Below, one piece after another: positions 1 to 40,781 of a DNA stretch of 64,000 bases. A model generated the notes under the pieces. The model was not told the origin of the DNA. It made no database searches and worked only from the letters and a program-made list of their open reading frames with translations. The stretch's first letter is position 1. Every line of letters starts with the position of its first letter. The DNA is from Marsupella aquatica. Lineage: Eukaryota > Plantae > Marchantiophyta. The position numbers and the translations under genes are program-made. The stretch spans positions 3,944,738-4,008,737 of the forward strand of contig OZ316896.1 of the NCBI GenBank assembly GCA_973895155.1, given 5' to 3'.

Positions 1-74
1 CAACGGGAGAGGCTACAATAATAACCACATGGTGTGGTTTTGCCCCTATCTCGCTAGTAGCACGAAATAACCCC

Positions 75-2300
75 TCAGAATGAGCAATTTGGCGGACGCA
101 AATCTCCCATTGATGAGGGATCAAAATAAATCAAGCTCGCAAGGTTCTTGTCTTCACGTATGATACAGTCTGCAAACCCAGCATTTTGTATATCCTGCAG
201 GGATCGCAATTTCAGCCTCTCACCGACCGGCCGCACTAGTTGGTTTCCTTGACTATCAACTGATTTCTGTATTCCTTCCACCAACCTGTAGAATATAGGG
301 TCGATCTCCTTCAACAAATTATCATTACTAATATTTACATTTAAGCACTTCTTCAGATAACCACTCAACGCATCTCTCAACTGCTTCAGCACCATCTTGT
401 CGAGCTTAAAGCGATCAATCATTCCTTTGACCCGCAATTTCCGCGCTGAATCTGTCAGACTTTTCAGCTCCGTCCGGGTGGATGTTTCCCCATTGAGTTT
501 ACTCAATAATAAAATCTCAAACTCAACTTTCATCTTCTTCTTTATACAGAATTGCTCCAAACTCATGCTGGTCGTTGACAACACTCGAGCCTCAGAGGAC
601 TTCCTCGCCTTCCCAGATTTCACTTTGATGCTTTGGTTTTTGAGTATAGACAGTCTTCCGCTCAACATATATTCCGCTGCCTTTCGAAGAACCGAGTCTG
701 AGCACCCTTGACAAGAACGGAACGTCTTCTTTAGAAGATGATAAGCACATGGATTATCCGCAATTTTGACGGTGTCCCTCTGTAAAATTCTGTTGTAAAT
801 TACAAGCTCTCCTGTCCTTGATAGTTCATAGACCTCCATCCACTTCTTGAATGTTTCGTCCTCCATTGTAAAGAGAAACGGAGCCAATTCTCCAAATTTC
901 ATCATTTCGTTCTTCCCCATTTGAGCCCATGGGCAGACAAAACTCGTAGCTCTCATAAATACCTGAAAAACAATGGAAACATGACAATTCTAAGCTTGAC
1001 GCGACCATTCGCGTGACAAAAGTTTATACGATAATGTGATCGAAGAGGGTTATTTATATACCTTCCAATTTGGATGACGATAATGTGATCCAGGCCACCC
1101 AAATGAGTTCCAGATATTACGACACTGTCGTACAATGGTGAGAAACTGTCCTTCTTCCATTGATGTTTGATGACAGTGGTTCAAAGCTTTTGATAATCCC
1201 ATCAAATGAACATTATTGTCGTTGTTGAGCGTTGCCCAAAACATTATAGCTTCTACAGTACCGCAAGCGTCTCGTACAACTTGGCTGACTTTGTCGTCCT
1301 CTCTCAGCAATTTGTACGCCATTATTGTGTGCTGGCCTTCGAGTATCCAGAAATGACTGGTCATAATGTCCTCCTCCTTTGGCGATGAATCGTAGGGCAT
1401 CCCATTGTAGTCGGGATCTCTGTCGGCCTCCGACTGAACCCACTTCACAGGGACTAAAAAGCAGCATTGCTTCTCGAACTTTATAGCCGAATGAGAGAGG
1501 AGTGAATTCTTTAGCCTATCTGTGTAATCCTGATTCCACTCTCGGCACTTGATGTGGTCCGGTGCAAGATGACAACGTGATGTCTCAACAAAAAATGACT
1601 TGCTGTTAAATATATTCACAGCACTATATTCTTTGAGGAAAGAATCAAACAGAGCCCCGACATTCGCTGAGGTAATTACTTTCGGAAGATTCTCCGCCGA
1701 GTATATTTCAACCTTGCTCACTGGCGGGGCCTTTCCCAAGCAAAATCCCTGGTTGAAAGGAACTCTCTGGAACTCAAGTACGTCAATAATGTATTGACAA
1801 ATCAAATCTCCCGTTGATGCCTCTGGATCGGAAGGATATCCCACACTAGTAACCTTTTCCAAGGCGTGCCTTGCACCTAGAAGATCATCGATTATGGGTT
1901 GATTGAAGGTTACATATTGCGTTCGATCCAAACAAATGCTTATTTTGTCTTCCTGCTGGTCGTCGCTGACTAGCAGAACCAATCCCTCTGTACACTCTTT
2001 AACTTTCATGTTCTTCTCAAAGAAACACCCGAGAATTTTTGATCTCTCCAAAACTGTAGCTTTATCATTTCTTGCCACCACAAGACGGACAGCCCCATTG
2101 CGAACGACTATTCCAAAATCGGATATCTCAGTCGATTCAAAGAGATGGATACTCTTTGTCTCCGTTGTTCTCTCTCTGATTGACTTTCCTCGATATGCAA
2201 GTATGGATGTCTCTGCGGGAGTCATTTTTGTCTTGGCTTTCTTTCGAGAAGCAGCTTTAGACGAGTCTCTTTTCCGCTTTGAGGTTCCGATAGGATCCAT
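75..2300 (-). CDS. ParB/Sulfiredoxin-fold protein, two exons (2300-1062, 962-75); possibly continues past a frameshift beyond the window start
   Basis: ORF 1050-2300 shows the ParB/Srx pattern CREWNQDYTDRLKNSL...FWILEGQHTIMAYKLL...VEAIMF...LSKALN. A 99-nt GT..AG intron (1061-963; AAG|GTATAT...TTTTTCAG|GTA) joins it in phase 0 to ORF 75-956 (NWK|VFMRATS). The N-terminus is NLS-like (KRKR, RKKAK). Confidence 0.7.
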
Positions 2301-2375
2301 TCTTAAATAGACAAATATTGAAAGTTAAACATTTATTATAAAATACTAACACGCACATGGTCGCGTCGTGCCGAA

Positions 2376-2906
2376 TTACATTTTAGGAACATTTATCCTG
2401 ACCCAATCTTCTCGCTCATCTTCATCTAACCAAAACCAAAGGTTCCTAAATGTGTCAAGTTCAGATCCTTCAAATCCACCCAAAATGTCCAGCGGCGGGA
2501 GAGTTCTGATGGATTCTGTAAATCTTAATGCTACACTCCGTGAAGTCAAATGCCTTCGAAGCGATTCATATCCTGGTCTATCAGTGAAGTCGTAAGCTAC
2601 CAAGGTGACCGTCGCCCATGTACTACTATAAGTAACTATGTGGCACCACTTCTTACTGACTGTTCGAATGGCGATCAAGTCCATGACCCGATTTTTAATC
2701 GCAGTATTCGACAAATTCCCAAGACAGTGGAAAAACTCTTTGACTAATGGCCAAATATATTTCTCGACAATATCATCCGGAAGACCGGGTATCAGGTCTT
2801 CAGCTTGACTCCATATCATGTTTCGGTTCATAACCTTTGCACGTGCAATGCGCTCCATCATCATTTGACAATGAGATTTTTGATTCATGTCAAAGGACTG
2901 CAGCAT
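2376..2906 (-). CDS. F-box-like protein, paralog 1
   Basis: LIPGLPDDIVEKYIWPLV...IRTVSKKWCHIV is a plant F-box signature with an internal insertion. Intronless, 176 aa. Confidence 0.7.
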   Translation of the reverse strand: MLQSFDMNQKSHCQMMMERIARAKVMNRNMIWSQAEDLIPGLPDDIVEKYIWPLVKEFFHCLGNLSNTAIKNRVMDLIAIRTVSKKWCHIVTYSSTWATVTLVAYDFTDRPGYESLRRHLTSRSVALRFTESIRTLPPLDILGGFEGSELDTFRNLWFWLDEDEREDWVRINVPKM

Positions 2907-2940
2907 AATATGGAAAAGATTAAGAACAAGACCCTATCCA

Positions 2941-3507
2941 TTAAGAACTGGGACCACCGAGATTCTGAGAAAATCTACCAAACCTTTCGATTAGGACATC
3001 TCGTTCTTCCTCATCTAAATTCCTATATTTGTTTGTAAACAATGCGATTTCATCAGAAGTAGTAGTCCCAAGAACAGATATTTCTGGAAGCATAGAAATA
3101 TCCTGTCGAATAACTCGATAGACTGAGTCAAACTCCAACTCCTCAGTTTCGGGTATGTCGTAAAGAGCATCATTTGCGACATCGACAATCCGGTTTGCTT
3201 GTTTGAGGATAGTCCATAACCTTGTATTTGTAACTAAAAAGTTCCACTTCTTGCTACAAGCTCCAAGCCGAATAAGGTCTCGGACCCTATTGATAACCAA
3301 ATCGTTATCGAGGTGTCGATATCCACGCAATCTTTCAATTGAAATAAAGTGTTCGTAGAGTATTGGCCAAATGTTTGAAATGACCAAAACATCTGGTATT
3401 CCTCCAATGAGACTAGAGGAGGTTTCATCCAGCGTATCCCATATTGTTTTCTGTTTCTTTTCATGAGATGAAAGGAAATCTCGAGTCTCATTCAAAAGTT
3501 GGCTCAT
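2941..3507 (-). CDS. F-box-like protein, paralog 2
   Basis: LIGGIPDVLVISNIWPIL...LGACSKKWNFLV. The C-terminal LPEISVLG..EIALF..LDEEER motif is shared with paralog 1. Confidence 0.68.
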   Translation of the reverse strand: MSQLLNETRDFLSSHEKKQKTIWDTLDETSSSLIGGIPDVLVISNIWPILYEHFISIERLRGYRHLDNDLVINRVRDLIRLGACSKKWNFLVTNTRLWTILKQANRIVDVANDALYDIPETEELEFDSVYRVIRQDISMLPEISVLGTTTSDEIALFTNKYRNLDEEERDVLIERFGRFSQNLGGPSS

Positions 3508-3572
3508 CCTGCTTTTATCATATCACAAAACATTGTTAGAAGACATACGACGCGCTTCGTCACGTAAGTTAA

Positions 3573-4124
3573 CTAGAATTCCTTAAAAGCGTAGATGTCA
3601 CCCTCAAGGTATCCAACTTCGTGGCATCTGACTGTAAATTTCCATTTTTCAAGAGGGTGAAGAGCATTGTAAGTCTTCGTGAAGAGTTCCCTAAGATCTC
3701 TGGACATTGACCCCATGAATTTAATTCTTGGGTATTTCTGGAATAAACTTTGAACTGTCGATGAGAGAGACTCATTTCCGATCGGTTTAGTAGGATTTCC
3801 TGGGAAAGCCAAATCTAATAAACTCAACTTGATTACACCCAGAATATAGGTATTCCCAACAAGGTGGCGCCATCTGCGACACACCGAAGATAGTCCTACA
3901 AACTCATCCAATTCCTTTATTGAGAAATTTCCTGCATTAGCCGAGGAATTAAAAGTCTCCTGGATCCGAGGCCATATCAATTCCGCGACAATGAAATCTG
4001 GAAGTCCAGGTAGTAGTGTTTCAACAAATACAGAATATCCCGCAAGTAGACCATCTTGGCTTCTGTCCAAAACGTCAAATATTGGGCATAGATATCTGAA
4101 GCTCTCTAGACCAGGTTCGCCCAT
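3573..4124 (-). CDS. F-box-like protein, paralog 3
   Basis: LLPGLPDFIVAELIWPRI...LSSVCRRWRHLV. The C-terminal YPRIKFMG..LRELF motif aligns with paralogs 1 and 2. Confidence 0.68.
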   Translation of the reverse strand: MGEPGLESFRYLCPIFDVLDRSQDGLLAGYSVFVETLLPGLPDFIVAELIWPRIQETFNSSANAGNFSIKELDEFVGLSSVCRRWRHLVGNTYILGVIKLSLLDLAFPGNPTKPIGNESLSSTVQSLFQKYPRIKFMGSMSRDLRELFTKTYNALHPLEKWKFTVRCHEVGYLEGDIYAFKEF

Positions 4125-4263
4125 GACTCTTTTCAGCCAAATGATATATCCCAGAGATTATATTTCACGCGACTGGTCGCGTCTACAAATCAGAATGCAT
4201 AAACAATTCTTTGAGAGACTGATTTTTTCGGGTCACAACGTGAAATCATAAATATTGCTTCGT

Positions 4264-4850
4264 CCTCTAACAGAACCAGTCAATGAGAGAGCAACCTCAG
4301 ACGCGACTGGTCGCGTCAATTGAACCTAAATAACTATATCCACTGAACCTTCTGCGGAGATTTGGATATGGTACGCGCTCAGTAAATCTATCCAGTTTCC
4401 TTCTCACACGCGATTGGTCGCATCAACTGGTCCTAAAAGGAACCCTACCTCCTCTAACAGAACCAGTCAATGAGAGCTCTACCTCAGACGCGACTGGTCG
4501 CGTCAACTGAACCTAAACAACTATATCCACTGAACTTTCCTTGTGGAGATTTGGATATGGTATGCGCTCAGTAAATCTATCCAGTTTCCTTCTCACACGC
4601 GACTGGTCACGTCAACTGGTCCTAAAAGGAACCTTACCTCCTCTAACAGAACCAGTCAATGAGAGAGCAACCTCAGACGCGACTGGTCGCGTCAACTGAA
4701 CCTAAACAACTATATCCACTGAACCTTCTATGGAGATTTGGATATGGTACGCGCTCAGTAAATCTATCTAGTTTCCTTCTCACACGCGACTGGTCGCGTC
4801 AACTGGTTCTAAAAGGAACCTCACAGTATTTTCACACGACTGGTCGCGTC
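4264..4850. repeat. Tandem repeat, ~188-bp unit x3, two 18-bp palindromes per unit
   Basis: CCTCTAACAGAACCAGTCAATGAGAG starts at 4264, 4451 and 4640. ACGCGACTGGTCGCGT variants at ~4300, 4408, 4487, 4596, 4676, 4783, 4833. Confidence 0.95.
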
Positions 4851-7384
4851 AACAGCTGAAACAACTTTTGGACAATAGGATAATACAGTGATACAACTGT
4901 GATTACTGACCCGTACGGACAAGGAAATCCGAGGAAGCATAATCATTCATTTGTATTCATTCATGAACTTTACAATAATTCAGATGTTTGAGCTCTGTCA
5001 TTGTGAAACTATTATATATTAGAAGTTTAGAGAATGATCCAGCTAAGATGATTCAATTTAGCAGTCTACTGGTTGTATTCGTCAATTAAAGGATTCAATT
5101 TAATGAGATTCACATAACATGAGAGTTTATATGATTAAATTCACAGCGTGCAAGTTTGTAATGACTTACTTAAGACGATTCAGGTTGTATTTTAATTAGT
5201 GAGTTTGTATGATTCACACATATTTGAGTTTACAAACAAACCGCATTATGAAAATTGTGCTTAACAATCAAGAGAAATTTTAGCAAACCACAATCAACAC
5301 CAGCAGAAAATGTAGAAATTACACCTGAATTCTGAAAAATTGATGTAATCGCCTGAGAGATTGACGTCCAAGCACTTGAACACCTTGCTGCGGCATTCCA
5401 GAAAGTAAATATAAGTTTGAAGATATTAATATGCTAAGCAACAACAACACAGCTTCTATACTTCTATACATAGAGCTTCGCTGCCACCAATTGAATAACA
5501 TGTGCTTAATGCTAAGGAGCTCATTATGTTGAGTTAAAAAGATTCTTTCAGAAGTACAATCAAAGCTGTGGATAGGCAAACTGAGCATGAATAAAAGCGC
5601 ACTAAACCTGAAGATTCAAAGAGGTGAAACAAACCAGAATGCTGAATGGAAGGAGCTAAAACAAGCTGCCAAAAAGTAGTTCGAGCTGCTGAAACACGTT
5701 GATCGAGCTGATATGAGCTTAAAATTGGCTGACACGAGCTGATACAAGCACTCCCAAAAAGCTAGCTGCAACGAACTAGCAAACTAGAAGTGAATACGAG
5801 CTGTAAATGCGAGCTGCAATGCGCCAACGAGCTCCTGGTCGAAACGATGGACAACTACTAAGAGTTGCAATGCGCCGACAAGCACCTGACCACAACGAAC
5901 GAGCTGCAACGACAAAAATAAAATCCAGGGCAGGAGCGAGAGCGAGAGCGACGAGAGCAGGCGCGCAAAAGTCTAGGGAGCGAGAAACAACAACAATGAA
6001 CAATGAACTCGAGACCGTGGGTGCCGACACTAAGGAAGGACTAATTAGGGTATTGTTTTAGCATAACCCTAATAACAGCCTAGCGACAGGAAGGTTCCAG
6101 ATGATCTCCGTACACTCCACCATCGACTGAACAAACTATGCAATCGTGAAAAAAAGATTATCGGATTCTTTTTGATTTTCCGTACTAAAGGAGATTTCTA
6201 TTTGATGGCCAATTTGAAATTTAAATCGGTAATTATGCAACTACAAAAGATTATTAGTGGGGACCCCCGGATCCGGATCCGTATCTTCACTATATCTGCC
6301 AATTCAAATCCAAAATGTGAACGAACAACAACTTTCTCACGATCGTTCCATCACGTAGTGGAGGCAAACTTCAAAATCATTCCATTTTGGTAGTGGAGAC
6401 CGTCGGATCCGGATCCGTACTCCACTCTCTATCTTGCCAATTCAAACCCTTACTCTAAACAACGTAAAACAATTCTCACGGTCGGGGAGAACCGATATTC
6501 AAAATCAATCCTGTACAATGATTCTCACAACTGGAGACTCAACCAATTTTCAAAATCAAAATCGAGTCCAGATGAACACATCCTCCATGGAGTCAATAGA
6601 CTGATCTCATTGCTCACGGATCATTCTTCATTTTCAGTTTCTCCTGACCAGGATACTAGCTGGGCTCTCAGTGGAGGCTGATCCAAGGCACATTTGAGGT
6701 GGAGCAGATTGGATCATTCGACTATTCCAGTCGGAGGCGGAGCTCATTCAAGCAACGCTGGCGCAGTTCTTGTTGTATCACCTTCAATCTTGGGGAGAGC
6801 ACATCCGATCAAGTGGGAGAGTTGCGACGAAGTGAGACGACAAACATTTAGAACCTCCATAGTCTACCTCATTCATCGAAGCATTCTAGCGGACCAACAA
6901 AGAGCGGCTATTCTGAAATCACAGTCTAGTCGAGGATTTTGATCTTGATATGATCAACAAGTTGTCATTCTCTGGTGGTGGGATTCGATCACGATACTCA
7001 AGGAAATTGGAGTTCGAAGGAGGAGGCTTAGTTGGCTGGGACGAGGAGGGTACGCTTGAAGGAAGAGGCTTGGCTGGGAGGAGGGTTTCCGCCAACATCG
7101 GAGGGTTGCCGCCAACATTGCTTAGACCACACGCAACTGAATAACTTGTAAGTATCAATCAGCATTAATTCCACAATAAATGAGGAGAGTAGTTGCCTTA
7201 AATCACGCATTCAATGCATGAATTGAGTCAATGAAGTTATGGTCCAATTTCTCACTCCGAGTTTGATCAATCCGTGTTTCAAGTCCAATACAGAAGCAAT
7301 GTATCAGAAGTACTAGTAGAGGATCCGAATGAATTCTCTAGTCTAAAATTGTATGGCGTACGCGTATAGTTGTCCGTACGTTTT

Positions 7385-8335
7385 GCTATTGTTTATTGTA
7401 GTCGACGGCCTAGCAAAACGAAACGTAATCGAGGTCCATTTTTCAGATCTTCCTGATCTCAACTTGTTAGTAGGATGACCTGTTTTTTGGTTACACATGC
7501 AGTTCGTCACGCGCACAGTCGCGTGAACCAATTTATCTCGTGTCTTTTGATATTGTTTATTGTAGTCGACAGCCTAGCGAATTGGCCAGAAATCTATTTT
7601 AAAACCAACGTCTTCGTTTCATCATGCGCACGGTCGCGTTAATGTTTTAGAGGTCAGCAAAAGTTCTGCACTCTTAGATGTAATCGCCCTTTATTTCAGA
7701 GATCTTCCTGATCTCAACTTGTTAGTAGGATGACCTGTTTTTTGGTTACACATGTAGTTCATCACGCGCACAGTCGCATGAACCAATTTATCTCGTGTCT
7801 TTTGATAATGTTTATTGTAGTCGAAAGCCTAGAGAATTGGCCAGAAATCTATTTTGAAACCGAGTTCTGATTCACACGACCGGTCGCGTTAATGTTTTAG
7901 AGGTCAGCGAAAGCTCTGCACTCTTAGACGTAATCGCCCTTTATTTCTCAGATCTTTCTGATCTCAACTTGTTAGTAGGATGACCTGTTTTTTGGGTTAC
8001 ACGTGTAGTTCATCACGCGCACAGTCGCGTGAACCAATTTATCTTGATATTGTTTATTGTAGTCGACTGCCCAGCGAATTGGCCAGAAATATATTTTAAA
8101 ACCGAGGTCTTTGTTTCATCACGCGCCCGGTCGCGTTAATGTTTTAGAGGTCAGCGAAAGCTCTGCACTCTTAGACGTAATCGCCCTTTATTTCTCAGAT
8201 CTGCCTGATCTCAACTTGTTAGTAGGATGACCTATTTTTGGTTACACATGTAGTTCATCATGCGCATAGTCGCGTGAACCAATTTATCTCAGGTCTTTTT
8301 GATATTGTTTATTGTAGTCGACAGCCTAGCGAATT
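7385..8335. repeat. Tandem repeat, ~250-bp unit x~4, with degenerate palindromes
   Basis: AGATCT(T/G)(C/T)CTGATCTCAACTTGTTAGTAGGATGACC recurs at ~7445, 7699, 7950, 8197. CACGCGCACAGTCGCGTG-type motifs occur about twice per unit. Confidence 0.95.
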
Positions 8336-8508
8336 GTCAGTCAGAGGAATCTTGATTTTTCCTTGATTGCAAAAATGGTTACATCGATCCCGAAGGACTT
8401 CGGATGTGGAATCCATATCCACTAGCACTATCCAGGAATTTAAGCTACACAGTATCTATAACAAGTTCTAACTTGAACTACTCTTGAATCTGTAGTTCTA
8501 ATCTTCGA

Positions 8509-9081
8509 CTACTCAAAATATTGTTGACTTCGATCGAGTAAGTCATTCCAAGATGAAGGGATCCACTCATCGGTGTCTGGTGTGGATTCCCTTGAATCCA
8601 TAAATTCTTCCTTTGCCCAAGTCCTAACGTCCATAGATTTTCTCGGCTTGCTCTTTCTGTAATACAAATCAGAATCTTTGTTCATCTCTAATTGCCTTTT
8701 CTTCGGTGCGTCCACTTTCTTGGCCTCCTTCTTGACTGTCTCAGCGTCTGCTGCTGCTTCCCCCGAAATGGATTCGACGCATGCTCTGGCCTTCAACTTC
8801 TCCCCCCTCAAAACGGATTCCACGAGGGCTTTGCCCTTTAACTTCTCCCCTGATGCCATCTTTGTAGTCATCTCTGTCGGATTGGTGTCCATCTGATCTT
8901 CCATCGACAAATGTGGCGAACAATGTCCTCTCTCACAAAACATTTGACCCGATTTAGTCACCGTAAACATTATATTACATCGCTGACACATTCTGTAAGG
9001 AGTACCCCGAATTTGATACGTCAAACCTTCTGAATCGTCCGTCGAAACATCCTCATTCTTTGAGCTCAGCGGAGTAGTCAT
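8509..9081 (-). CDS. Small Zn-ribbon-like protein of unknown function (element passenger)
   Basis: 190-aa ATG ORF with CQRC-x13-CERGHC and a basic C-terminal patch (PKKRQ, YRKSKPRK). Confidence 0.5.
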   Translation of the reverse strand: MTTPLSSKNEDVSTDDSEGLTYQIRGTPYRMCQRCNIMFTVTKSGQMFCERGHCSPHLSMEDQMDTNPTEMTTKMASGEKLKGKALVESVLRGEKLKARACVESISGEAAADAETVKKEAKKVDAPKKRQLEMNKDSDLYYRKSKPRKSMDVRTWAKEEFMDSRESTPDTDEWIPSSWNDLLDRSQQYFE

Positions 9082-9264
9082 CGCCCTTCAAACAAGAGAT
9101 GTTGACCGAGACTAAGAATTGGAAATGAGAGAGCTGATGTACGAATAGATTATCCAGTAGCCAGAAAGTGGAATGCATGGGGGAATGAGCAATAGAGATC
9201 ATCTCAATGCTTTATACTGTTTAGTCTCCACTAGTCATTGTACATAGTGGTTTCTAGAAGAGGG

Positions 9265-10100
9265 TGCGCGTTTGACTGGCGCGTATTAGAATTGGCGGGA
9301 AGTTCAGTTGTCCGGTGTCCACTCATTGGTAAACTGGTACTGTCCACCCATTTTTCCTGAGTGGAGTTGAAATGATTTTTCGTAATCGATTGTAGTCGTT
9401 CTCATTCACTTGAAATGACTGACGGACCATGCATTATCTTTACCGGTATGTGTGATGCCTTTAGATCCGTAATTGTATCTTCCTGTCTCGCGCGTAATCG
9501 TATCTTACTTATGAAGTACCAATTACGAGCTAGAGTTTGGGCCTAGCCTTCTAGCTTCTACGTCGTAGACCCTGTACCCTCTGACTAAGGTCACGCGACA
9601 TGCCTTTAGATCCGTAATTGTATCTTCCTGTCTCACGCGCAATCGTATCTTACTTATGAAGTACCAAGTACGAGCTAGAGTTTGGGCCTAGCCTTCTAGC
9701 TTCTACGTCGTAGACCCTGTTATCCCTACACCCTCTGACTAAGGTCACGCGACTAGTCGCGTGCAGGGCAGTGCATTGACTACATTCTGCCTACTTATTG
9801 ACAGTTGTGACAGGACAATGCAGTTCACGGACGTTTTACTGGCGCTTATTAGCACTACTGTCCTCAGTAGTTACTGACTGTCCACTCATTTGTTTTGAGT
9901 GGATGTGAAATGATTGATCGTAATCGATTGTGGTCATTCTCATTCATTTGACATGACTGACGGACCATGCATAGTCTGTTGCCGGTATGTGTGGTACCTC
10001 TAGGGTCACGCGACCAGTCGCGTGCAGCGCAGTGCATTGACTACATTCTGCTTATTGACCGACGTGACAGGACAGTGCAGTGAAATTGACGGACGTGACA
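9265..10100. repeat. Nested direct duplications in the divergent intergenic region upstream of the transposase
   Basis: TGCCTTTAGATCCGTAATTG at 9456 and 9601 (145-bp unit); ~9270-9452 resembles ~9830-9992; 9745-9830 resembles 10005-10095. Palindromes at 9746 and 10007. Confidence 0.9.
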
Positions 10101-10129
10101 GGACTATACGCTTACAGTGATATTCTCTG

Positions 10130-13100
10130 ATGTGCAGGATCATAATTATTATGGTGACATCGATAGTCTGGATCAGGGAAGGCGGACAAGTAATTATAGG
10201 CATACGTGAGAAACAGGTTGGAAAAGGTCGCGTGATAAGTCTTGATCCTTCCAGGGTTTGTCACAATGTTCCTCTTGGGGCGGACAGAGTTCTTCTTCTA
10301 TTGGAGGAAGTTTTTGATGAGACCATTCTATGCGAAGATGGCAAAATTTTGAAGGACATGATTGGGGGTTACCTTGTATGGGAAAGGAATCAGCTTTTTT
10401 GAGCTCCCATGGAATCAGAGGATGTGTTTGGCACTGTTGGTGATGATCAAGATCCAGTCAATCAAAATTCTGATGGGAACAACCATAATGAGAGTCGGTC
10501 TGGTGTGGAAGTAGTTTTACCAAAGGCCTTGTGGATGGCATGCCTGTAAAGGTGGTGGATGAGAACAAGTTGATATTTGCAGTGGCAACTATACATGTTC
10601 TAGATCCTATAGTCAAGCTTGGGGATGTCACCCTTGGGAATACACATGTGGGAATTCTGATCAACGATTTTGTCGAGGGAGCTACCATAGATCATCTGAA
10701 GCATAGAGATTGCTTAAAAGCTTGGTCGATGGACCAACTCATTGCCAAGGATGGCAACTTGTTGTCTTTCCACAACATCAGGCAAGCTGTGGGAGGGAAC
10801 ACATCTCCAACAAGTGGCAAGCAGTCCTACGTCCATAAAAGTAGGAAAAGAAAGAGTCCATCTTCCCAGACATCTAGAAGAGACACATCTTTGGCACGTC
10901 AAGATGTGTTGTTGATAAACACTAAGGACTGTTGTAGTGAACATTGTTGCCAATATTTGGACCGCAACTTGGCTATGGAAATTAGGCAAAAGTGGTGGTC
11001 AAAATCTTTTGCGGAGCGCAAGGAGGAGGAAATCAAGGCTATTAAAAATACAATACACTTGGGTACTGGAGAAAGGATTCTAGCAGTGGAGGGCAAAGTA
11101 TTGTGCTTGGAGGCATGGAGAATCATTCATTCAAGAGGAAAGACTCAATTTTATGCCTTCAAGAAGACTGTGATGGCTGGAATGAACATAGGTACCCATG
11201 GTAATGCTGGAAAAAGGCGTATGTCCGAGAAAGTATCTCAAGCGTTCATGTCAATGAAAGAGATTATTGAGGAGGCAGCTGATCATCATCCAGCCAAGTT
11301 GAGAACCATGGCAGATAATACAAGGATGGTTTTGAGGGAATTGCCAACAAATCTTACTTGGGAGAATATTAGAAACAGGGTTAATGTTGTCAACCAGGAG
11401 GCTGGTTTTCCTCCAATTTCCCAACCCACCTTGAGTCATCTACATCACATGTATTTCAGGGAGTTCTCACGTCACAAAAAGGGCAACAACTTTTCAAAGT
11501 GTACAACTTGTAGTGAGTTGCTTCAACGGAAAGCAAACCTTACAGGAGCTAAGGAAGAGTTAGAGGGCCTAAGGCGTGACGAGGAGGAACATCACCAAGA
11601 CCACACATAACAAAGAATGTGCTATCATACCTGGAGATATGAGTCCATCCATCGTCCAAAGGAAGTGTTATGCCTTATTCATGATAAGATGGATCATTCA
11701 AAGACAGCTCTCCCAAGAATGCCCTTCAATCCTAAGCATGTGGATGGTGCCCAAAAGTTCCCAATTACTGTCACTGGTATCCTTACTCATGGTCATGGTC
11801 CCAAGGCCATAGCCCAATATCATGTTGGAGTGTGGCCAGGTGATGTCAACATCACTATTGGGTCAATTGATTCAATACTAAGGATGTTGGAAAACCCAAA
11901 TCCAATGATCAAATCACTTGTGGAGGGGCCAGACTCAACAAGTCTTTTTAAAGACCTCCTTTTTGGGAGAGCAGATATCTTGGAGGCAAGTGTCCTTAGA
12001 GCATTTGAGGATGACATTGCCTACATCTCAAGCCTAGGTACTTTACTCACAATCCTTTAATTTATTATTATTTAATAATATAAGCTCACACACACTAACA
12101 CTCTACTTTGTGTAGTTGTTGCTCCTCTTAGCCAAGGTTTCATTAATAGGGTTTAAACCCTAAACCCTAAATTGGGGTTTAGGGTCTGACTAGGGTTTTG
12201 TTTAAAAGCATTCTGAGATTGTTACATTGTGATGTAGCACCTGAGGCACCAAAGTTCAGGCCCCTTCCACGAGTATTGAAGCTACAACTGGATAATTGTG
12301 CCTCAGACAACAAGAACAGATATATGATGGCTTATTTGTCATTGTTGACGGCAAGGGAGGTGTTTGAAGAGGTTCATCTTGGTTTTATGGTGGTTGGGCA
12401 TACTCATGAGGACATTGACGGTATGTTCGGGCATTTTTCAGAGTCTATGATGCATAACCCCACATACTCATTGCCTGAGTTAATGTCCTTGTTCATGAGA
12501 GCAAGGACACCCAATGCAGTCCCATATTTTCTACAGGAGGTCCCAGATTTCAAAAACTACTTAGCTCCATTCATGTTGAAGGGCCCTGAGGCATTGGTGG
12601 GGCATTTAAAACCCAGGCTGTTTAGGTTCTATGTTCGTCATGATAGTATGCCATGCTTCCAATACAAAATGAAGTCAACTGATCAGGGATGGTTACCCAA
12701 GGAAGGTATTGAAATGTGGTCATGGAAAGATGACAAAAGTCCTCACATCCCAATTGGGGTGCCCAAACGGCTACCAATGATGGAGTTGAAAATGCTTCCT
12801 GAAGTGCTGACAGGGTTGAAGAAGCATGTGTCATTCTTTGAGTTTATTCTAAAGCGAACAAAAGAGGAAGAACCAAAGCGACGTTGGACAACTCTCATCA
12901 ATTATTGGAATGACATTGTAGATACTCTACAGGGTGAGCAGGTGCAATATGAACCTGAAGGTGCACACAACTTGGAATACGGGTTTTGGCCTTTATCAAT
13001 ATGGAGAGAGCACGTTCCACCAGAATATCGAAATGTGGCATGTGAGTTGGAGGCAACAGTGGATTATGTGGGACCAACAAAAGATAAACCTCCTGAGAGT

Positions 13101-13526
13101 TTTAACCCTAGGGTTGATGTTGTGAAGGGCTGTTATGTGTTGGTATGGCCGGACGACTCAGACCTGGATGTTTATCCCGTCCATATGGGGTTAGTTGTTA
13201 CAGATGTGGTAGAAGGACCAGTGAATGAACAAAACCTTCTTACTCATGTATGTGGCGTTGAGTGGTTTAGACCATTTATGGCAAAGAAGCAACGTGGTCA
13301 ATCAGACTGGCAGCCCAGAGAGCGGTGGGCAGATTCTTGGGATAAGAAATGGGAACGTGATCCATCTCCAATATACAAGGAAGCTGAGACAATAGATGTT
13401 TCCTCTGCCTTGTGGTGTTTCAAAGCACGCAAAGGACCAATGACAGGGCTGGTAGGAATTCCAAAGAATGTTGCTGTCAAGGCAAGAGACTATCTCTTGA
13501 CATGCATAGCAAGTGACAAATCCTAG
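10130..13526 (+). pseudogene. Disrupted DDD/E transposase, Sola-like/DUF7869-type, with two N-terminal Tnp1/En/Spm-like domains
   Basis: Motifs CCSEHCC, FSKCTTC, LIHDKMDHSK, LQLDNCASDNKN and VGHTHEDIDGMFG. N-terminal GRVISLDP..HNVPLG..GGYLVW and ATIHVLDP..GDVTLG..KAW repeats. Lesions: TGA at 10400-10402, a frame change near 10500, in-frame TAA at 11608-11610. A phase-1 intron 12038-12237 joins the last two ORFs. Confidence 0.75.
12146..12199. repeat. Plant telomere-like repeats in both orientations inside the transposase intron
   Basis: TAGGGTTTAAACCCTAAACCCTAAATTGGGGTTTAGGGTCTGACTAGGGTTTT. Confidence 0.75.
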
Positions 13527-13619
13527 ACAGTAATGAAGCATGTAGTTTAGCATACAGTTTAAAAGGCAACTCAGAATAGTAGTAGCTAGAGAACTCAAGT
13601 TTAGACAAGTTTTATCGTC

Positions 13620-14195
13620 TAAGTTAGTTAGTTGGTTAGTTTATTTAAGATATAATATTAGTTAGTGGGCCCTTAGTTTGGTGATATTAAGGCATGATAT
13701 TATTGACATTCAAATGAATGTCCAGTAGACATTGTAATATACAACAATCCTATTAATAAATAATAATTATAGTTACACCCTCAAGTGAACTCAACTTTCA
13801 ATGATTTCTGATTTTATATGGTTCCATGCCTGATTGAGTCAAAGCAATAGAAACTAACTAATTAAAGGGTGATACTATAATTGTAGGTCACGCACCCTGG
13901 TGCGTGTCAATCTTTTTTGTATTCAACCCTATAGTAATTAAATAGACAAGTTAGTTAGTTGGTTAGTTTATTTAAGATATAATATTAGTTAGTGGGCCCT
14001 TAGTTTGGTGATATTAAGGCATGATATTATTGACATTCAAATGAATGTCCAGTAGATATTGTAATATACAACAATCCTATTAATTGTTGTAAATAAACTA
14101 ATTAATTAAAGGGTGGTACTTACTATGATTGTAGGTCACGCACCCTGGTGCGTGTCAATCTTTTTTGTATTCAACCCTATAATAATTAAATAGAC
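13620..14195. repeat. AT-rich direct duplications downstream of the transposase
   Basis: ~13620-13755 matches ~13947-14082; ~13880-13945 matches ~14128-14195. Each of the latter pair carries CACGCACCCTGGTGCGTG. Confidence 0.9.
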
Positions 14196-16541
14196 AATTG
14201 AAACAATGAATGATAGTTTAATTAAGGATTTGTGCATGGATCAAGAGGTACTTGATGTCATTTAGTGATGCATTGTTATAAAGATCTTGCAACAAAACAT
14301 TTGAAGTTTTTGACTATCCCACCAAATGTTAAAGAGGTTGATCATTCATTAACTAATAATATTTAGATAAAATTGGAATTAATCTAATACTTCAGTATTC
14401 CTTAAATTGGGGTTAAGTTGTAATTATACAACACACTGCCAAAGAAAAAAGCTTCAAACTCAGAGAAAAGACTTTAAAGGCAGGTGACCCAAGAAAGGGG
14501 AGAAAAAAAGGAAACTCCAGGATGACCATGGCCCAAAGGACTGAAAGTTGCACAGTACAACAAAGGAACTAAAGCCCTACTCACCAGTAAACTTAAAAGA
14601 CTGGTAAAGCTGAGGAGTAAACTACACAGGAGGGTCCCAAGGAAGCATTTATTTAGAGTCCCTATTCCCAACGGGAACCCAACAGCCTCAGCCATTCCTA
14701 ATTAAAGAGTGAATGCCTGAGCCAGGCTCTATAGTGCAGAAAAACTGGGAAATAAGGCTGCGTCTCTACAAAAAATATCCTAGGCTGCATGGTTGCACAA
14801 CCATCTCTTTGGGCTTGGGACAGTCCCCAGGGATCGTTATGTAAGGGACACCTTACATGATTGAGCCCCCAAAACTTCCAAAGCTAAACAAATCCCCAAG
14901 TGAAGGTAGCCATCTGCATACCCCTCCTTCTCCTTGACCAGGGCTGCCTTGGCTGATAATTAGTATTACTTTATGTATACAGTAATGCCCTGGTGAAGAG
15001 ACATGATGAGCCATAACTCCCCCAAAATGAGAGCTTTAGCTTGAGTTTTGAGGGGCTATTGTTGCCCAGAATGCCCTTGCAATAGGGCATTACTGAACAC
15101 ACTTTAAGTTCTAAGAGATTCACGCTTAAAGGTCTAAGATATTCAATCTTAAGTTTTTGGTCCAAGTCTATACTATGCACTTTTCTCAATAGAAGCACCA
15201 AAATTTACTAACGGAAAGTCAATAAGAACATTAAGACAGTTACCCAAGAGGTAGAAGCCCAAGCGTGTGATGAAAGAAGAAGCTAAAATGCCAAGAGTTT
15301 GCTAGGTTTTCTTCTGTTTTGTATGGTAAAATTGTGAGTTACGTATGCTTAAATTGATTGATGGGGTCATTGCATAAGTCCTAGTATTCAAAGCAAGGTG
15401 TGTATTGTATAAAATATATTATGCTACATATGAAAAACAAAGCCAAACCTAACTAAAGTCTTTAAGTACACAGGCCACAATGCCCTGGAAAAATTGCTTT
15501 AGCTCAGGGGCTACTACTGCTGATATTTCAATATATATATACCTGTGCGTTGCACAAAATAAGTAGTTGTGCAAAAGATGTCGTTGCATAAAAGATGTCC
15601 ATGTGAGAAATGTGTCATAGCACAATACGATGGTATTGAAAAAGATGTTGCATAAACAATTTATTTGCATAAGGATGTCTTTGAGTGAAAGATTTCTTTG
15701 CATAAAAGATGTTATTAAAAGATGGCATGGAAGAAGTCATTGAAGAAAAGGTCGAGGTGCCATAGAGGCAAGGTGACCAGATCCATGGACGCATGATGGC
15801 AACTGTGAGGTCCAAATAGGGCCATGCCACTATTCACTTTTTTCCTCCTCTCCCCCCTCCTTCTCTCCTCCCCCTCCCTAGTACATAAGGGAGGCAGTGG
15901 GCGAGGGCAAGGCCCAAGGAAAGGCAAGTGGGCATAGGGGGCAGGTAAGAGGTGGACAGACTGTGGGTCCCCCTTGCTATGTTCTCTTTCCCAGAGGCAT
16001 TTGGTCCATCTTTCTCCCACCCCTCGTGCTCCTCGAGAAAAAAAAAACCCATCTGATGTGGTTCAAGCTACTATAAATGTGGATATTTTTGGTCAAAACA
16101 AGTGGTAAAAACAGTGTATGGTGCCAATGGGTTGTAAGGAAATTAAACTAATCCCACTAGGAAGGCAAAAGGCTATTGGGGCAAAAGAGAAACCTCCTTG
16201 CAAACCTGTATGTTGGGTGTCTGATGCAAACATGACATTAGCTATGGACAGAAAACCTTAAAACCGGCAATAACCATAAATAACGCTATCAATGTTAGGA
16301 AGACCTTAATAAGGGGTCTACCTCAAAATTTGATGGACTAAGTTAAGGTTACCATTAGACTACCAAATTCATAATCCATATTAAGTCTTTGTCATCAAGA
16401 TTGGTCATACAATAACCATAAATAATGCTATGTTAAGAAGATCTTAATAAGGGGTCTACCTCAAAATTTGATGGACTAAGATATGGTTACCAACAGAAAA
16501 AACATAAAAATTTTAGGATCACCAAATTCATAATCCATATT

Positions 16542-16897
16542 TGTTGAGCATAGAAAACAATCGTAACGGTAAACACATGACACACCCAATGCGTAACTAA
16601 TCGACACAAGAGATATGTGATTCACCTCCTCGAGGCAACATCCACATGAACAAATAAGAGAGCTTTACCAAACTCTAAGCCCGTCGGTCACACCAAGTGT
16701 CCACAATGTAAGACAGTTCTCTTCTTCTCTCAAGTGATTCGGTAACAATGAGCCTTAGTTCCACATATCCTATCAAGCACCGTTTAGAATATAGTGTGTA
16801 ACTTAGTCAACTTCACCACGTCTTTGATCACGATTAACTTAACTACAATTACATGTCATAAGCCTACTGTAGATGTAATAGTAAATACCTCACAACA
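16542..16897. mobile_element. Probable solo LTR (~356 bp)
   Basis: TGTTG...CAACA ends. It interrupts the second copy of a local ~140-bp duplication (16268-16409 vs 16410-16540 + 16898-16925). No clean TSD. Confidence 0.5.
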
Positions 16898-17289
16898 TTA
16901 TGCTTTTGTCATCAAGATTGGTCATATGCCATGATCACAAGTCAATGTAGAGTCTAGTGATGAAAAAAGAAAAGACTTTTACAAAACCATGTGAAATAGA
17001 TATGGTCATTTGTTCCTGGTCAAAAGCCGTCATCCCAAAACCTTGAGACCCCCAATTAGTCCCCCTAGTGAGTCGATCCAAATCTTGACAGTGCATGCTT
17101 CGCACGACCTCAGATGTACATCTAAAGAGAAAGGTCTCGAGGGGCACTAAGTTTTTCAAACAGTCTGCGTCCTCGTTCTCGCCAGTCGTGCTCCATGGTG
17201 CCTTTCCAGACCGTGGCCTGATTCTATCGTTGGAATTAGTACTTTCCACCCTCAAAAGGGGAGCTTTTTGACGAGGTTATTCCATGATC

Positions 17290-17452
17290 CATGAAGCTGT
17301 CGTTTCTTTTTTGCCTCGAAGGTTTCGAAGAATTCGATTACCTGAAGCTGCTATTGAGTTTTTGCCTCGAAGGTTTCAAAAAATTCGATTCCCTGAAGCT
17401 GTGATTGAGTTTTGCCTCGAAGATTTCAAAGATTTCGATTCCCTGAAGCTGT
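17290..17452. repeat. ~46-bp tandem repeat x3-4
   Basis: Recurring (C)TGAAGCTG...TTTTGCCTCGAAG(G/A)TTTC...TTCGATT. Confidence 0.85.
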
Positions 17453-33467: not shown

Positions 33468-34675
33468 GTACGGATTGTCTTTTTTATTTCCCGTATTCTC
33501 CTTGAAGAGAATCAACACAAAAACCTTAGCATGTTCTCGAATCCCTCCTGCAAGAGAGGGGGAGATGAATCTTAAGACATGAACTAAACATAACAAGAGC
33601 ACATTTAACATAGCCACTAGCCCAGATGCAAAACCTGGTGGTCTGGGTTTACTAAACTAAGACCAAAATGTTCTCAAAAAAGTAAAACATTCCACTGATT
33701 TGTCCTCTGCCGAACCTGATGGTTAGTGGCTGTTTGAAGACAATGACAAATGTTGAGTGCACACACTTACACCTGCCGCATCTTACATGAGTAAAGGACC
33801 TAACCAGAGACAACTTAAGGTAATGACACGTGGTGACTGCACAGACTAACACCTGCGCATAATAATATAGTAACACAATACAGTATCCGGAGAACTGTAA
33901 CGAAAGGTAACATTCGATCACAAAAGAAAACAGAGTATCCTGTCACAATACTTCACATTCCTCAATTAAGGAACAGGAAAGGCAGTCGATCACCTGTCAC
34001 AATGCTTCACATTTCTCAATCAAGGAACAGGAAATGCGCACCGTAGATCGGCGAAGCGAAAGGGAGGAAGAATGAAAGGAGCAGCATAACAATTGAAAAT
34101 TTCACCAACTTAATTGAGAATGTGGAATGTGCAATTGTATCGACACTCATGCACGACTCTTAGCTCACCGCCAACCATTGGCCTTTGCCCTTTCTCAATC
34201 ATGGAACAGGAACGGGGCACCTTAGATCGGCGAAGCGAAAAGGAAACGAATGAAAGGGCAGCATCATAATTGAAATCGTCACCACCTTCATTAAGAATGT
34301 GGATTGGATCGATACTCATGCACGACTCTTTAGCTTACCGGCAACCATTCGCCATGGATCGGACAAACTGCCAAGGTGGTTGTGACACTGGGAGTCTTGA
34401 CAAGCGAGGCAGTCTTGACAACCGAGGCAGGGGGCGTCACTCTTATAAGCTCTTACTTAGCTTTCATTCTTTTTGTATGATCAAGCCCTACTCTCTTCAC
34501 TTCTTGCATTCCGTTCCCAGTCAAGTATATGTTTGGTTGTAGCTCCTGAGCATCATATTTCGGGGATCCAGTAACTCACAGTGTCCAGTACGTTGGCGAC
34601 CAGAATCTCCTATTGAGCTTGCAGACGGTACCATCTGCTGTCACGCTCATCATCTGGTCATCTGTAGAATTTGCT

Positions 34676-35461
34676 ATGAAGACGGACGCCGATATTCTAG
34701 ATGACCAACAGTCGGGAGATTCTGATGGGAGTCAGTGGATTGATTTTACACCGGTCATTTCTTTCGTCCCCCCGAACATCAACGACACTCCGGAAATGCT
34801 GTTCATTACGCAGGTTCTATCTACATCCAGGCGTTTTGTTCGCCGCACAAACCCACTCCAGATTCTGGTTTATACTGATGGAGCCTGCTCCAACAATGGC
34901 AGAAGCGGAGCGATGGGAGGGTGTGCTTTCGTGTTCAAGGGTGGTCAATCTCCTGAGGAGATTAGAAGCGGGATCATCTCCTTTCGTCTCGAGGGCCGTG
35001 GCCCGACCGGAATTGCGTATCCGCATACCAGCAATCGTGCTGAGCTACGGGCTGTCATCGCTGCTCTCCAATTCAGGGCATGGGACGGTGAGGGATACAA
35101 TGAGCTAGTAATCGCCACTGATTCGGAATACGTGGTAAAGGGCGCCACGCAATGGATTGAAGGGTGGATAAGGAAAGAGTGGCAAACAAAGATGAAGACA
35201 GGAGTTAAGAATATCGATTTGTGGGAATTGCTCTTTAAGGAAGTACAGAAGTTTAAGGAGCGCCAGGAGCACCTTCGTGTGATGTTTTGGCGGATTCCTC
35301 GAGCTTTGAACACTACAGCTGATCAGGCGGCTAGGGAAGCGGCAGCGACAGGAGAGCCGCAAGACAACTTCTCCCCAATCTTGGAGATTAGTGCAGGCAC
35401 CATGCAGGATGGCAGCTTGGCTTCCAATTTGGGCCAATGTTCGTGTCGTCGTTTCCCATAG
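34676..35461 (+). CDS. RNase H1-family protein, fungal-like, copy 1 (upstream Cys/His motif out of frame)
   Basis: VYTDGACSNNG, TSNRAELRAVI, ATDSEYV, KNIDLW and WRIPRALNTTADQAA: D-E-D-D catalytic residues intact. ATG at 34676. Intronless. Confidence 0.8.
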   Translation: MKTDADILDDQQSGDSDGSQWIDFTPVISFVPPNINDTPEMLFITQVLSTSRRFVRRTNPLQILVYTDGACSNNGRSGAMGGCAFVFKGGQSPEEIRSGIISFRLEGRGPTGIAYPHTSNRAELRAVIAALQFRAWDGEGYNELVIATDSEYVVKGATQWIEGWIRKEWQTKMKTGVKNIDLWELLFKEVQKFKERQEHLRVMFWRIPRALNTTADQAAREAAATGEPQDNFSPILEISAGTMQDGSLASNLGQCSCRRFP

Positions 35462-36785: not shown

Positions 36786-37796
36786 CTACTTGTCTCGTCT
36801 CCATAGCCAAGCTTCGAACTTCTCTCCTTGCAATTTCCTTGGGATGGCCTCGACAGACAGCGCCCATCTGTTAGACAACCCGAACAGACGATGCTGTGCT
36901 GGATTTGCAACGAAACACTGCAGTTGGGCGATTGATGCGCTATCATCCCCTTCACACAGCAACTTCCCCTCATATGCCCTCTCTGCAAACACTCTCGCCC
37001 TTGCCTGGTCTCCGCAAGCAATCGCAATTTTAAACGCGTCATAGTACAGCCTATGTAATCGCGAATCTGTAATGTTTTCTGCCTCCAGCAGTTTGAGCAG
37101 CGTATAAGCATCGTCAAGACACTGGTGTGGACTGAAAAGAACATGGGATCCATGATCGTCAATGACGTTGTCGAGCAGCTGGATCTGGCTCAAGCGCTCA
37201 TCGCTAATTGCTCTTTCAACCAGTGGGAGAGAGCAGAGCTCACAAGTGCACTCGAAATTGAAAAAATTCTTCAAACGTCGACTCCGAGTTTCAAACGGTC
37301 CTCCAATAGTGTAATCAATTGTTATCTCCTCGCCCGCCCTTATGCGTCTGAGCGCATGGATAGTTTCTTGGCCTATGGTCGCGTTCCAAGTATGTATGGA
37401 ATTCGCAAGACACGCATGATTGATCCTGGATATCTGAACAAACAATCCACCGTCTAACGAGCCAGCGCCTAGTGGAAGGGCGTTTGTCCTAAATGTGCCG
37501 AACAACGGGTGGAAAATGCCTGGAGAACTATTGTGAAGAGATAGGAAGGCCCTCTGGTCGTCTTTGGAAAGGACACTGAGCTTGCTAGCAATGTACTTTC
37601 CAACTACTTGCTCTGACGATGCATATCTTAGATGCAATTCAAAGAGAGGCTTTTCAGAGATGATTCGTGCGCCTCTGGGGATGTCTTGCGCTGCAACAAG
37701 TCCTTGGCCTTTTCCGGGGAGATACTCCACAGTGTAGAGCTTTGAAATTGTGTGATCCGTTGTAGCTAAGTTCTGAGGTTTGCTGTGTCCGTCCAT
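36786..37796 (-). CDS. SET-domain lysine methyltransferase (fungal Set5/SMYD-like, no MYND insertion)
   Basis: PGKGQGLVAAQDIPRG, SRINHAC, GEEITIDY, post-SET FECTCELC and a helical C-terminus. Intronless; likely ATG at 37796. Confidence 0.85.
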   Translation of the reverse strand: MDGHSKPQNLATTDHTISKLYTVEYLPGKGQGLVAAQDIPRGARIISEKPLFELHLRYASSEQVVGKYIASKLSVLSKDDQRAFLSLHNSSPGIFHPLFGTFRTNALPLGAGSLDGGLFVQISRINHACLANSIHTWNATIGQETIHALRRIRAGEEITIDYTIGGPFETRSRRLKNFFNFECTCELCSLPLVERAISDERLSQIQLLDNVIDDHGSHVLFSPHQCLDDAYTLLKLLEAENITDSRLHRLYYDAFKIAIACGDQARARVFAERAYEGKLLCEGDDSASIAQLQCFVANPAQHRLFGLSNRWALSVEAIPRKLQGEKFEAWLWRRDK

Positions 37797-39602: not shown

Positions 39603-40781
39603 ATGTCTACTTCCGAGAAGCCTGCCGTTCTGTGCACCATTTGCGACTCTCCTGGAGTTTCCCTTTGCGCCCAGTGTCGCAGTGTCCGCTACTGTTCGAA
39701 AAAATGCCAGCGGATCGATTGGCCTACGCACAAGCTCCTATGTCGCTCCTTCAGCGACTTCCGCGTGCGACCAGGACCTACGTTCAGGAGAGGAATCCTC
39801 TTCCCTGTTCGCGAGGAAACCCCCAAATTCATCTGGTTAGAAATCATGAGTGATCATGACGACAGTGACGATGAGTACTGTCCGACACCAAACCTGCGTG
39901 GACTACTGGGACCTGGAGAACCCATAGGTAGTTGGCTGTATTGCCAAGAAAATACTTATCGGAATCGGAAGCTGGAGAACACTCTTGTGGTCGCACACAG
40001 AGATAACTTTTTGAACGACGGATCGCTTCCCAATCAGAGCACCAGCAAAGCCACGAGAGGAGAGCATGCACACAAGTGGGCAGGACCTATGGTCGCATTT
40101 CGAATCGACGGCCTGGACTTCTTGCACTCATATGCTTACGGTGACATGACTCTCGACGACTTTCGTCATACTGTTGATTTCTTCGTGAGCTACTGCAATG
40201 ACTACTACGCGAACGACAGCTTGACCGGAGTGGCAAAGGTGAAAGGGGTGCGAATAAGCTGCAATGCCGACAAAGCAATGTTCGGAGCGGACAAGTACAT
40301 CCCTGTCGATGTGGAAGATTGTCATGAAGTGTTTAGGATGGAGGAGCCCATTGGAATTTCAAAACTGATCGAGCTTCCAATCTTCGTGCGAAAATGTCCT
40401 CCACACCAAGTCTGGAAGAACGGCTCTACGGCCAACTACACCAATACATCAGCAAGTTGGCTTCACCTTGACCTCGACCCTAAGAGCGCCCATTTCGGTT
40501 GGATCCCATTTCGATGGAACGAAAGAGTTGGCAGTGTCCTAGCAGCGCGAGTGGATCGAAAGGCGCTATATCCCCACCACATGGAAGCACTATGCGACTT
40601 CTGCCAGTTTACTTTGCAGCCGTTGATTGAAGACTCATTCGGTGCAGGGCTAGTGGAGAGGACAAGAGATGATGTCATGCAAGAGATGACGAAGGCTAAA
40701 TTCAAGGAGTTTTTCCGGGACTACAAAGCTAAACAGAGGGATCCTGCTTGGATGGCTACACCATGTCCGTATGACATTTAA
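39603..40781 (+). CDS. MYND zinc-finger protein, fungal-like
   Basis: CTIC..LCAQCRSVRYCSKKCQRIDWPTHKLLC, then RDNFLNDGSLPN, WAGPMV, DFRHTVDFF and GSVLAARVDRK. Intronless; ATG at 39603. Confidence 0.85.
   Translation: MSTSEKPAVLCTICDSPGVSLCAQCRSVRYCSKKCQRIDWPTHKLLCRSFSDFRVRPGPTFRRGILFPVREETPKFIWLEIMSDHDDSDDEYCPTPNLRGLLGPGEPIGSWLYCQENTYRNRKLENTLVVAHRDNFLNDGSLPNQSTSKATRGEHAHKWAGPMVAFRIDGLDFLHSYAYGDMTLDDFRHTVDFFVSYCNDYYANDSLTGVAKVKGVRISCNADKAMFGADKYIPVDVEDCHEVFRMEEPIGISKLIELPIFVRKCPPHQVWKNGSTANYTNTSASWLHLDLDPKSAHFGWIPFRWNERVGSVLAARVDRKALYPHHMEALCDFCQFTLQPLIEDSFGAGLVERTRDDVMQEMTKAKFKEFFRDYKAKQRDPAWMATPCPYDI

Follow-up and report, generated by a model that had tools for sequence, protein, structure and literature searches.

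A frameshifted accessory gene of a high-copy transposon in Marsupella aquatica and its putative ParB-like and methyltransferase-like product, a proposed binder of the element's own palindromes

ParB-methylase cargo of giant transposons has so far been described in passing, in algae only and as a proposal. Our literature search for ParB-methyltransferase cargo of land-plant transposons found none; among the matches listed Ectocarpus alone was relevant, and subscription papers were mostly outside its coverage. Iyer 2011 is reportedly the work cited for green algal cases. The giant Sola-type transposon Sola1-1_Ec32 of Ectocarpus carries, on the strand opposite to its transposase, an accessory gene with a ParB-like and an amino-methyltransferase part, and binding of the protein to its own element has been proposed (PMC12477816). 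The giant Plavaka elements of Bostrychia, with PAG2/PAG3, contain a ParB-like accessory gene (PAG3) adjoining tandem inverted-repeat arrays, together with methylase cargo (bioRxiv 10.1101/2025.02.11.637652), and ParB-HTH methyltransferases occur in chlorophytes and chytrids (Iyer 2016, PMC4738411). VANC, encoded by the Mutator-like VANDAL elements of Arabidopsis, is an anti-silencing protein for which hypomethylation has been shown and whose 9-bp motif stands in direct arrays (PMC5735166). DUF3723 is conserved cargo of the fungal Starships, giant tyrosine-recombinase elements (bioRxiv 10.1101/2021.12.13.472469). The bdelloid N4CMT matches Pfam PF01555 and has a catalytic SPPY (PMC8885841), and both it and the Marchantia 4mC enzyme are low-copy host genes whose motif order is permuted (beta) and derives from bacteria.

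We analysed a window of 64,000 nucleotides from Marsupella aquatica (contig OZ316896.1), the left part of which belongs to a multi-copy element of more than 14.4 kb with a discrete right end and a left end beyond the window. Contig depth is high from 1 to ~14,400 in all four sequencing runs compared (X1-X4, from two studies; the window itself may derive from one of them). Contigs of single-copy depth set in at 14386, with a drop in depth, in three of the four. Transposase contigs reach depths of 1103-1454 against 36-49 for the flank in X2; the corresponding values in X4, 698-729 against 17-18, suggest that the element exists in tens of copies, depth being no copy number as such. Just past the right end stands a TTAA-like site, not AWWT, the 4-bp target duplication of Sola1; Sola-type elements also have terminal inverted repeats. 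The 15-mer at this end (14400-14414) recurs at 12165 among telomere-like repeats, two matches being reached in 3/100 shuffles, and the terminal GGGG-TTAA may be a coincidence. TTTAGGG/CCCTAAA repeats at 12146-12200, which we take to be plant telomere-like repeats, occupy a gap between pieces of the transposase.

The transposase carries DUF7869 (PF25273), presumably a Sola-like DDD/E transposase domain; a literature search found no paper naming DUF7869. At 12940-13500 it has a long C-terminal extension past DUF7869, Tudor-like by eye and without a family match. The accessory gene studied here lies on the opposite strand, likewise inside the element. Between the two are three tandem F-box-like genes (2376-4124), each single-exon, which the largest of the palindrome arrays immediately precedes on the upstream side; their Pfam F-box scores (E 0.002-0.02) are below the cut-off, and a role in counter-defence through protein degradation is possible. 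A viral origin of the element was rejected, since the scanned element ORFs include no virus-type family.

Separate repeats follow to the right of the element at 15019-17452, with numerous loose contig ends between 15019 and 15068, a stretch of high depth from 16009 to 17342 and tandem units of 17 and 51 bp. The flank holds PF04185 and DUF565 genes and has CG and CHG decay. Three stand-alone RNase H1-like genes (34550-35458, 52550-53323 and 62690-63382) share ~87-91% DNA identity at distances of 18 and 10 kb; a SET-domain gene (36786-37796) and a MYND-finger gene (39603-40781) are accompanied by a broken MYND duplicate 15.7 kb away (~55354-56364).

Table 1. Features of the element within the window (positions count from its first letter).
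Feature	Position	Strand	Remarks
Putative beta-class amino-methyltransferase-like region (start)	1-263	-	motif-IV-like strand 111-134; motif-VI-like strand in shifted frame
Accessory-gene exon 2	1-962	-	helical linker, then start of methyltransferase-like region; crosses window edge
Premature stop	75-77	-	2-base deletion at ~76, absent from most other copies
Intron of accessory gene	963-1061	-	99 nt, GT-AG; one palindrome inside
Intron palindrome	998-1015	.	some copies: 35-nt duplication adds a second site
Accessory-gene exon 1	1062-2300	-	413 codons; relatives P0001, P0002
ParB/Srx-like domain	1131-1583	-	residues ~240-390; GQH motif at ~1326-1346
PH/PTB-like beta-sandwich domain	1740-2195	-	residues ~36-187
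Upstream palindrome	2350-2367	.	50 nt upstream of accessory-gene start codon
Three F-box-like paralogous ORFs	2376-2906, 2941-3507, 3573-4124	-	24-32% identical
Array of 8 palindromes	4166-4850	.	mostly in 189-bp tandem repeats, upstream of F-box-like genes
255-bp tandem repeats with 6 palindromes	7438-8336	.	
ORF of 190 aa	8509-9081	-	no family found
Two perfect palindromes	9746-10024	.	divergent region before transposase; CpG change point (~10,241) just beyond
DUF7869 transposase	10492-13526	+	in pieces; in-frame stop 11608-11610; PF25273 E 1.3e-36 and 8e-4
Two subterminal palindromes	13889-14154	.	variant, changed on both arms; near right end
Element right end	14386-14416	.	approximate, ~14,412-14,416; exact end inferred

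Splicing the minus-strand exon 2300-1062 to the exon that begins at 962 yields a product of 708 aa with ILEGQHT at residues 319-325, in agreement with an earlier note on this DNA, which had described a spliced product of ~700 aa with an EGQH motif. The intron is bounded by GT and AG and contains an in-frame stop, so that read-through is impossible. Among relatives of the protein, P0001 terminates at the junction and P0003 and P0004 start at it, while a single ORF spans it in P0006, P0007, P0011 and P0022; in contigs of related copies, joints at which letters have been replaced lie at 970-1060 and 970-1058. The intron proposed in the earlier note is thus supported by relatives, independently of RNA, and an artefact was ruled out by the four relatives that cross the junction. 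The note had also placed the end of the product at ASLIYFDPS. The motif is there, and a further 12 residues precede the stop. The note did not mention the transposon context, the PH-like domain at the N-terminus or the arrays of palindromes.

That stop arises from the 2-base deletion. At place 76 contigs of other copies have 2 additional bases, the depth with the extra bases over total depth being 4766/9614 in X1, 827/931 in X2, 3729/3729 in X3 and 459/459 in X4. A second minus-strand frame, uninterrupted between 130 and the window edge, holds the peptide quoted in the earlier note, where this frame was offered as the continuation past the stop; 16 of its 23 residues agree with the corresponding continuation in P0003, a relative without the interruption, which supports the proposal. 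A profile search for relatives gave 24 matches at E <= 0.001. Nine of them (P0003, P0004, P0005, P0007, P0008, P0017, P0019, P0020 and P0026) entered the C-terminal alignment, the other 15 being short, not reaching the region or looking repetitive. The note had raised the case of intact paralogs that all stop at the equivalent of position 75; eight of the nine aligned relatives pass the site. Five extend ~150 aa more and end a few residues past L/M-V-R/S, which is likely to be a second intron donor as judged from the sequence. The frameshift is therefore particular to this copy, with most other copies longer at 76 and eight of the nine relatives reading on.

We interrogated the N-terminal half of the product by structure prediction and profile comparison. 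Residues ~36-187 are modelled by AF2 with pLDDT mostly 76-87 and dips to ~57-61, and all top rows of a VIA fold search with this region are PH/PTB/FERM-F3/EVH1 domains, the best with a middling Z of 5.2 (rmsd 3.7, 92 residues aligned). The GQH region that follows probably adopts a ParB/Srx fold, a prediction that draws on matches which are individually weak and concordant on that region. The sole PHROG row for the accessory protein is the ParB-like phrog_1033 at a weak E of 0.29; Atlas places the relative P0001 at 0.95 to DUF3723 clusters (185-186 shared features) and at 0.91 to ParB_N (123 shared features); and hhalign against a ParB profile of our own build from 40 sequences gives P 0.031 and 0.026, with 1/60 and 0/60 shuffles reaching the score. 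The Atlas clusters closest to P0001 residues 215-410 consist of DUF3723 proteins from fungi and of an unnamed cluster from eukaryotes in which Porifera is the commonest phylum. AF2 models residues 189-416 at pLDDT below 50, and Foldseek returned no match at E <= 0.001. A DGQHR search of 61 genomes gave three weak loci, not enough to build a separate profile from, and a DUF3723 model run over 61 bacterial genomes gave a single weak, stop-ridden match.

An arginine patch, GxxRxxA or DGQHR, forms the nucleotide-binding motif of ParB CTPase clamps and DGQHR proteins, and a fetched ParB sequence has GERR. Both sequences that cover the motif here read GQHTxxA, with Thr at the position of the GxxR arginine, which makes a CTP clamp unlikely. 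Of the ParB/Srx claim in the earlier note, the fold assignment gains several weak, concordant matches; the GxxR arginine is missing and Pfam gives no match. Library scans found no HTH in the accessory protein, the part by which ParB clamps read a parS-like palindrome.

The element carries an 18-bp CpG-rich palindrome in 20 occurrences, all inside it. The pattern, 8-2-8 and taken from the window sequence itself, was searched with at most three mismatches and matches 17 times, always within 998-10024, against a shuffle mean of 0.03. A version widened post hoc matches 20 times within 998-14,154 and nowhere in the remaining 49.8 kb. Other copies of the element differ by one base inside palindromes at places 1007 and 2355, the base at 2355 restoring an arm CpG. 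On balance we expect the accessory protein to bind this palindrome as a dimer; acting at the palindromes within its intron and ahead of its start codon, it would then autoregulate its gene. The same positions, within that intron and 50 nt upstream, speak against the strongest competing explanation, in which the transposase or a host factor binds the palindromes for expression or end synapsis and the accessory gene acts otherwise, for example with the F-box-like proteins. Two subterminal sites and two before the transposase would suit this explanation, as would the lack of an HTH match in the accessory protein and the statement in a preprint that transposases can activate cognate copies; that ParB-like genes are also found together with arrays of inverted repeats in elements of another, unrelated superfamily of transposases again counts against it, and we consider it unlikely.

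The palindromes that precede the transposase lie next to a step in CpG content. CpG observed/expected per kb is 0.8-1.1 from 1 to 10,000 and 0.2-0.5 over the transposase, with a change point at 10,241 (10,231-10,434) between 0.93 on the left and 0.26 on the right (p 3e-18). The step persists at codon-boundary positions, where 28 CpGs are observed against 37.6 expected in the accessory gene, and 12 against 47.3 in the transposase. A host gene in the flank has 39 against 43 and a LINE has 18 against 51.6. This LINE-type reverse transcriptase with zf-RVT, at 48467-50935, has an overall CpG o/e of 0.36. To the right of the transposase, at 13,527-14,412, four of five CpGs lie inside two palindromes.

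Decay was sampled as 56 majority differences picked by eye from the 80 listed rows out of 610; 38 of them are of C-to-T type, 24 at CpG against a background of 15.6%. Left of the step, 21 of the 33 listed C-to-T changes are at CpG, indicating that the arm is unprotected in the window copy. With the window copy decayed throughout, any protection would have worked in active ancestors. Tentatively, the system may have served to hold off methylation from the regulatory and cargo arm in active copies and so leave that arm transcribed, by analogy with what VANC does for VANDAL elements. Alternatively, the step could mark a recently captured cargo arm.

The C-terminal part rather likely has a beta-class amino-methyltransferase fold, as far as profile and motif comparisons indicate. 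With a 10-row alignment as query, comparison to two profiles, built from 30 and from 60 beta-class enzymes retrieved for the purpose, gave P 0.011 and 0.03 (1/80 shuffles reach the score), values that are not significant alone; at a relaxed threshold the part is colinear with the motif order IV-VI-TRD-X-I over 181 columns. Divided into halves post hoc, with the data already seen, the profile falls on the expected motifs with P 0.016 and 0.0025 for IV-VI and 0.091 and 0.056 for X-I, and 1/100 and 4/100 shuffles reach the score at that place. Other comparisons were uninformative or negative: with a shallow alignment of 3 rows, reversing the C-terminal query raised its score above that of the true sequence, eight bacterial ParB-methyltransferase fusions matched at chance level (20/60 shuffles reach the score), as did Atlas (0.80), and the AF2 model of P0003 (pLDDT 36.5) was too low for use, its fold search matching helical bundles only and no Rossmann methyltransferase fold. 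HMMER with our own methyltransferase and ParB profiles found no significant match, and scans of Pfam, NCBIfam, PADLOC and PDB sequences found none supporting a ParB or methyltransferase domain. Longer homologues were found among 0/2986 candidates, metagenome scans matched 0/127 and 0/242 stretches, and phage tblastn gave only noise at E 2-7.

Within this part the catalytic motif is, by the alignment, lost family-wide. The motif-IV Asp is present in 9/10 rows, the PPY of the catalytic (D/S/N)PPY motif, and with it DPPY, in 0/10, and DP in the window copy alone (1/10), the two residues after the Asp varying freely. Five of nine relatives have an F-G/S-x-G/S motif-I-like strand, a stretch that for the window copy falls beyond the window; the Asp is absent in 5/5, where fetched beta-class enzymes have the SAM-binding DPFxGSG. 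If the fold is right, methyl transfer is thus very probably absent, to judge from these motifs, and the family-wide loss of DPPY argues for binding as the conserved job. The earlier note's degenerate amino-methyltransferase is plausible in its motif order, with a score that is not significant alone and a fold model that is not usable. Its likening of DPSS to DPPY holds for the shared Asp, the Pro after it being private to the window and partly luck, and the suggested link to the Marchantia 4mC methyltransferase is unsupported because the gene is high-copy cargo lacking the catalytic motif. High copy number likewise ruled out a domesticated host methyltransferase.

These motifs also speak against a rival in which the protein is an atypical but working amino-methyltransferase and marks the element that encodes it with 4mC or 6mA, a role put forward for the algal proteins. 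Such an enzyme would account for the retained motif order and for the motif-IV Asp in nine rows, the same role has been proposed for Sola1-1_Ec32 (PMC12477816), and 4mC at CpG would be expected to protect CpGs from 5mC decay; with PPY in none of the ten rows, free variation after the Asp and no motif-I-like Asp in any of five, we hold it to be quite improbable. Least credible is that the ParB and methyltransferase likenesses arose by chance in a cargo protein of unrelated folds, since, although profile scores are all weak (P 0.0025-0.09), library scans blank and AF2 unsuccessful for both regions, three methods agree on the GQH stretch as ParB-like, the two methyltransferase anchors are colinear and the layout matches that of the published Sola1-1_Ec32 element.

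The reading we favour, with moderate confidence, is that a high-copy transposon of more than 14.4 kb carries the gene as cargo, frameshifted in the window, and that intact copies would encode a PH-like, ParB-like and methyltransferase-like protein which is likely catalytically dead and likely regulates the element by binding its own palindromes. Under this self-binding regulator model, the ParB-like/helical part is likely to read the palindrome as a dimer, the methyltransferase-like part likely serves as a non-catalytic scaffold for DNA or protein binding, and host factors are likely brought in by the PH-like domain. In the likeliest outcome the arm would be kept open and transcribed, the protein's own gene included; the window copy is dead, with later decay at methylated CpGs. 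A wider scenario, which we regard as speculative and rather doubtful, is that a bacterial ParB-methylase fusion became a catalytically dead, sequence-specific anti-silencing factor that binds parS-like CpG palindromes of its own element and blocks 5mC on the arm where copies are active, so that CpG content changes abruptly at the arm's border. The same ParB-like self-recognition module would then recur in giant elements of other, unrelated kinds, fungal Starships with their DUF3723 cargo among them.

The candidate protein and its precise 18-bp site form a testable pair, and the CpG footprint predicts where protection should act. If anti-silencing were true, this would be a sequence-specific system independent of VANC and a possible part for epigenome editing. 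For the DUF3723 proteins of Starships the Atlas link offers a clue to function, hinting at a ParB-like N-terminus in that cargo; a literature search linking DUF3723 and ParB found none.

The accessory proteins share with Starship DUF3723 their place as giant mobile element cargo, and in Atlas the ParB-like region comes closest to DUF3723 clusters (0.95); the accessory proteins lack a Pfam DUF3723 match, the likeness being one of Atlas features and not of alignment. With the domesticated 4mC methyltransferases the protein would share, if the fold call holds, a permuted motif order of bacterial origin, but it is multi-copy transposon cargo without the catalytic motif. VANC and VANDAL offer an element-encoded protein and a short motif arrayed in the element's non-coding tandem repeats; this is a functional analogy only, with no homology seen, and hypomethylation of the element described here is only inferred. 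The Plavaka elements with PAG2/PAG3 are likewise giant DNA transposons with a ParB-like gene, inverted-repeat arrays and methylase or methylase-like cargo, whereas their transposase is of EnSpm type, their ParB part is fused to a 2OG oxygenase and their methylase is a separate, Pfam-detectable gene. Sola1-1_Ec32 has the same layout, a giant DNA transposon, presumably Sola-like in our case, with a ParB-like and methyltransferase-like accessory gene on the strand opposite to the transposase and a product proposed to bind its own element. In contrast to it, the element in this window resides in a land plant, has an extra PH-like domain, three F-box-like genes and mapped palindrome arrays, and has lost the catalytic motifs family-wide. 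ParB-methyltransferase transposon cargo is a design already known from algal transposons and, by this analogy, the land-plant element is a variant of it.
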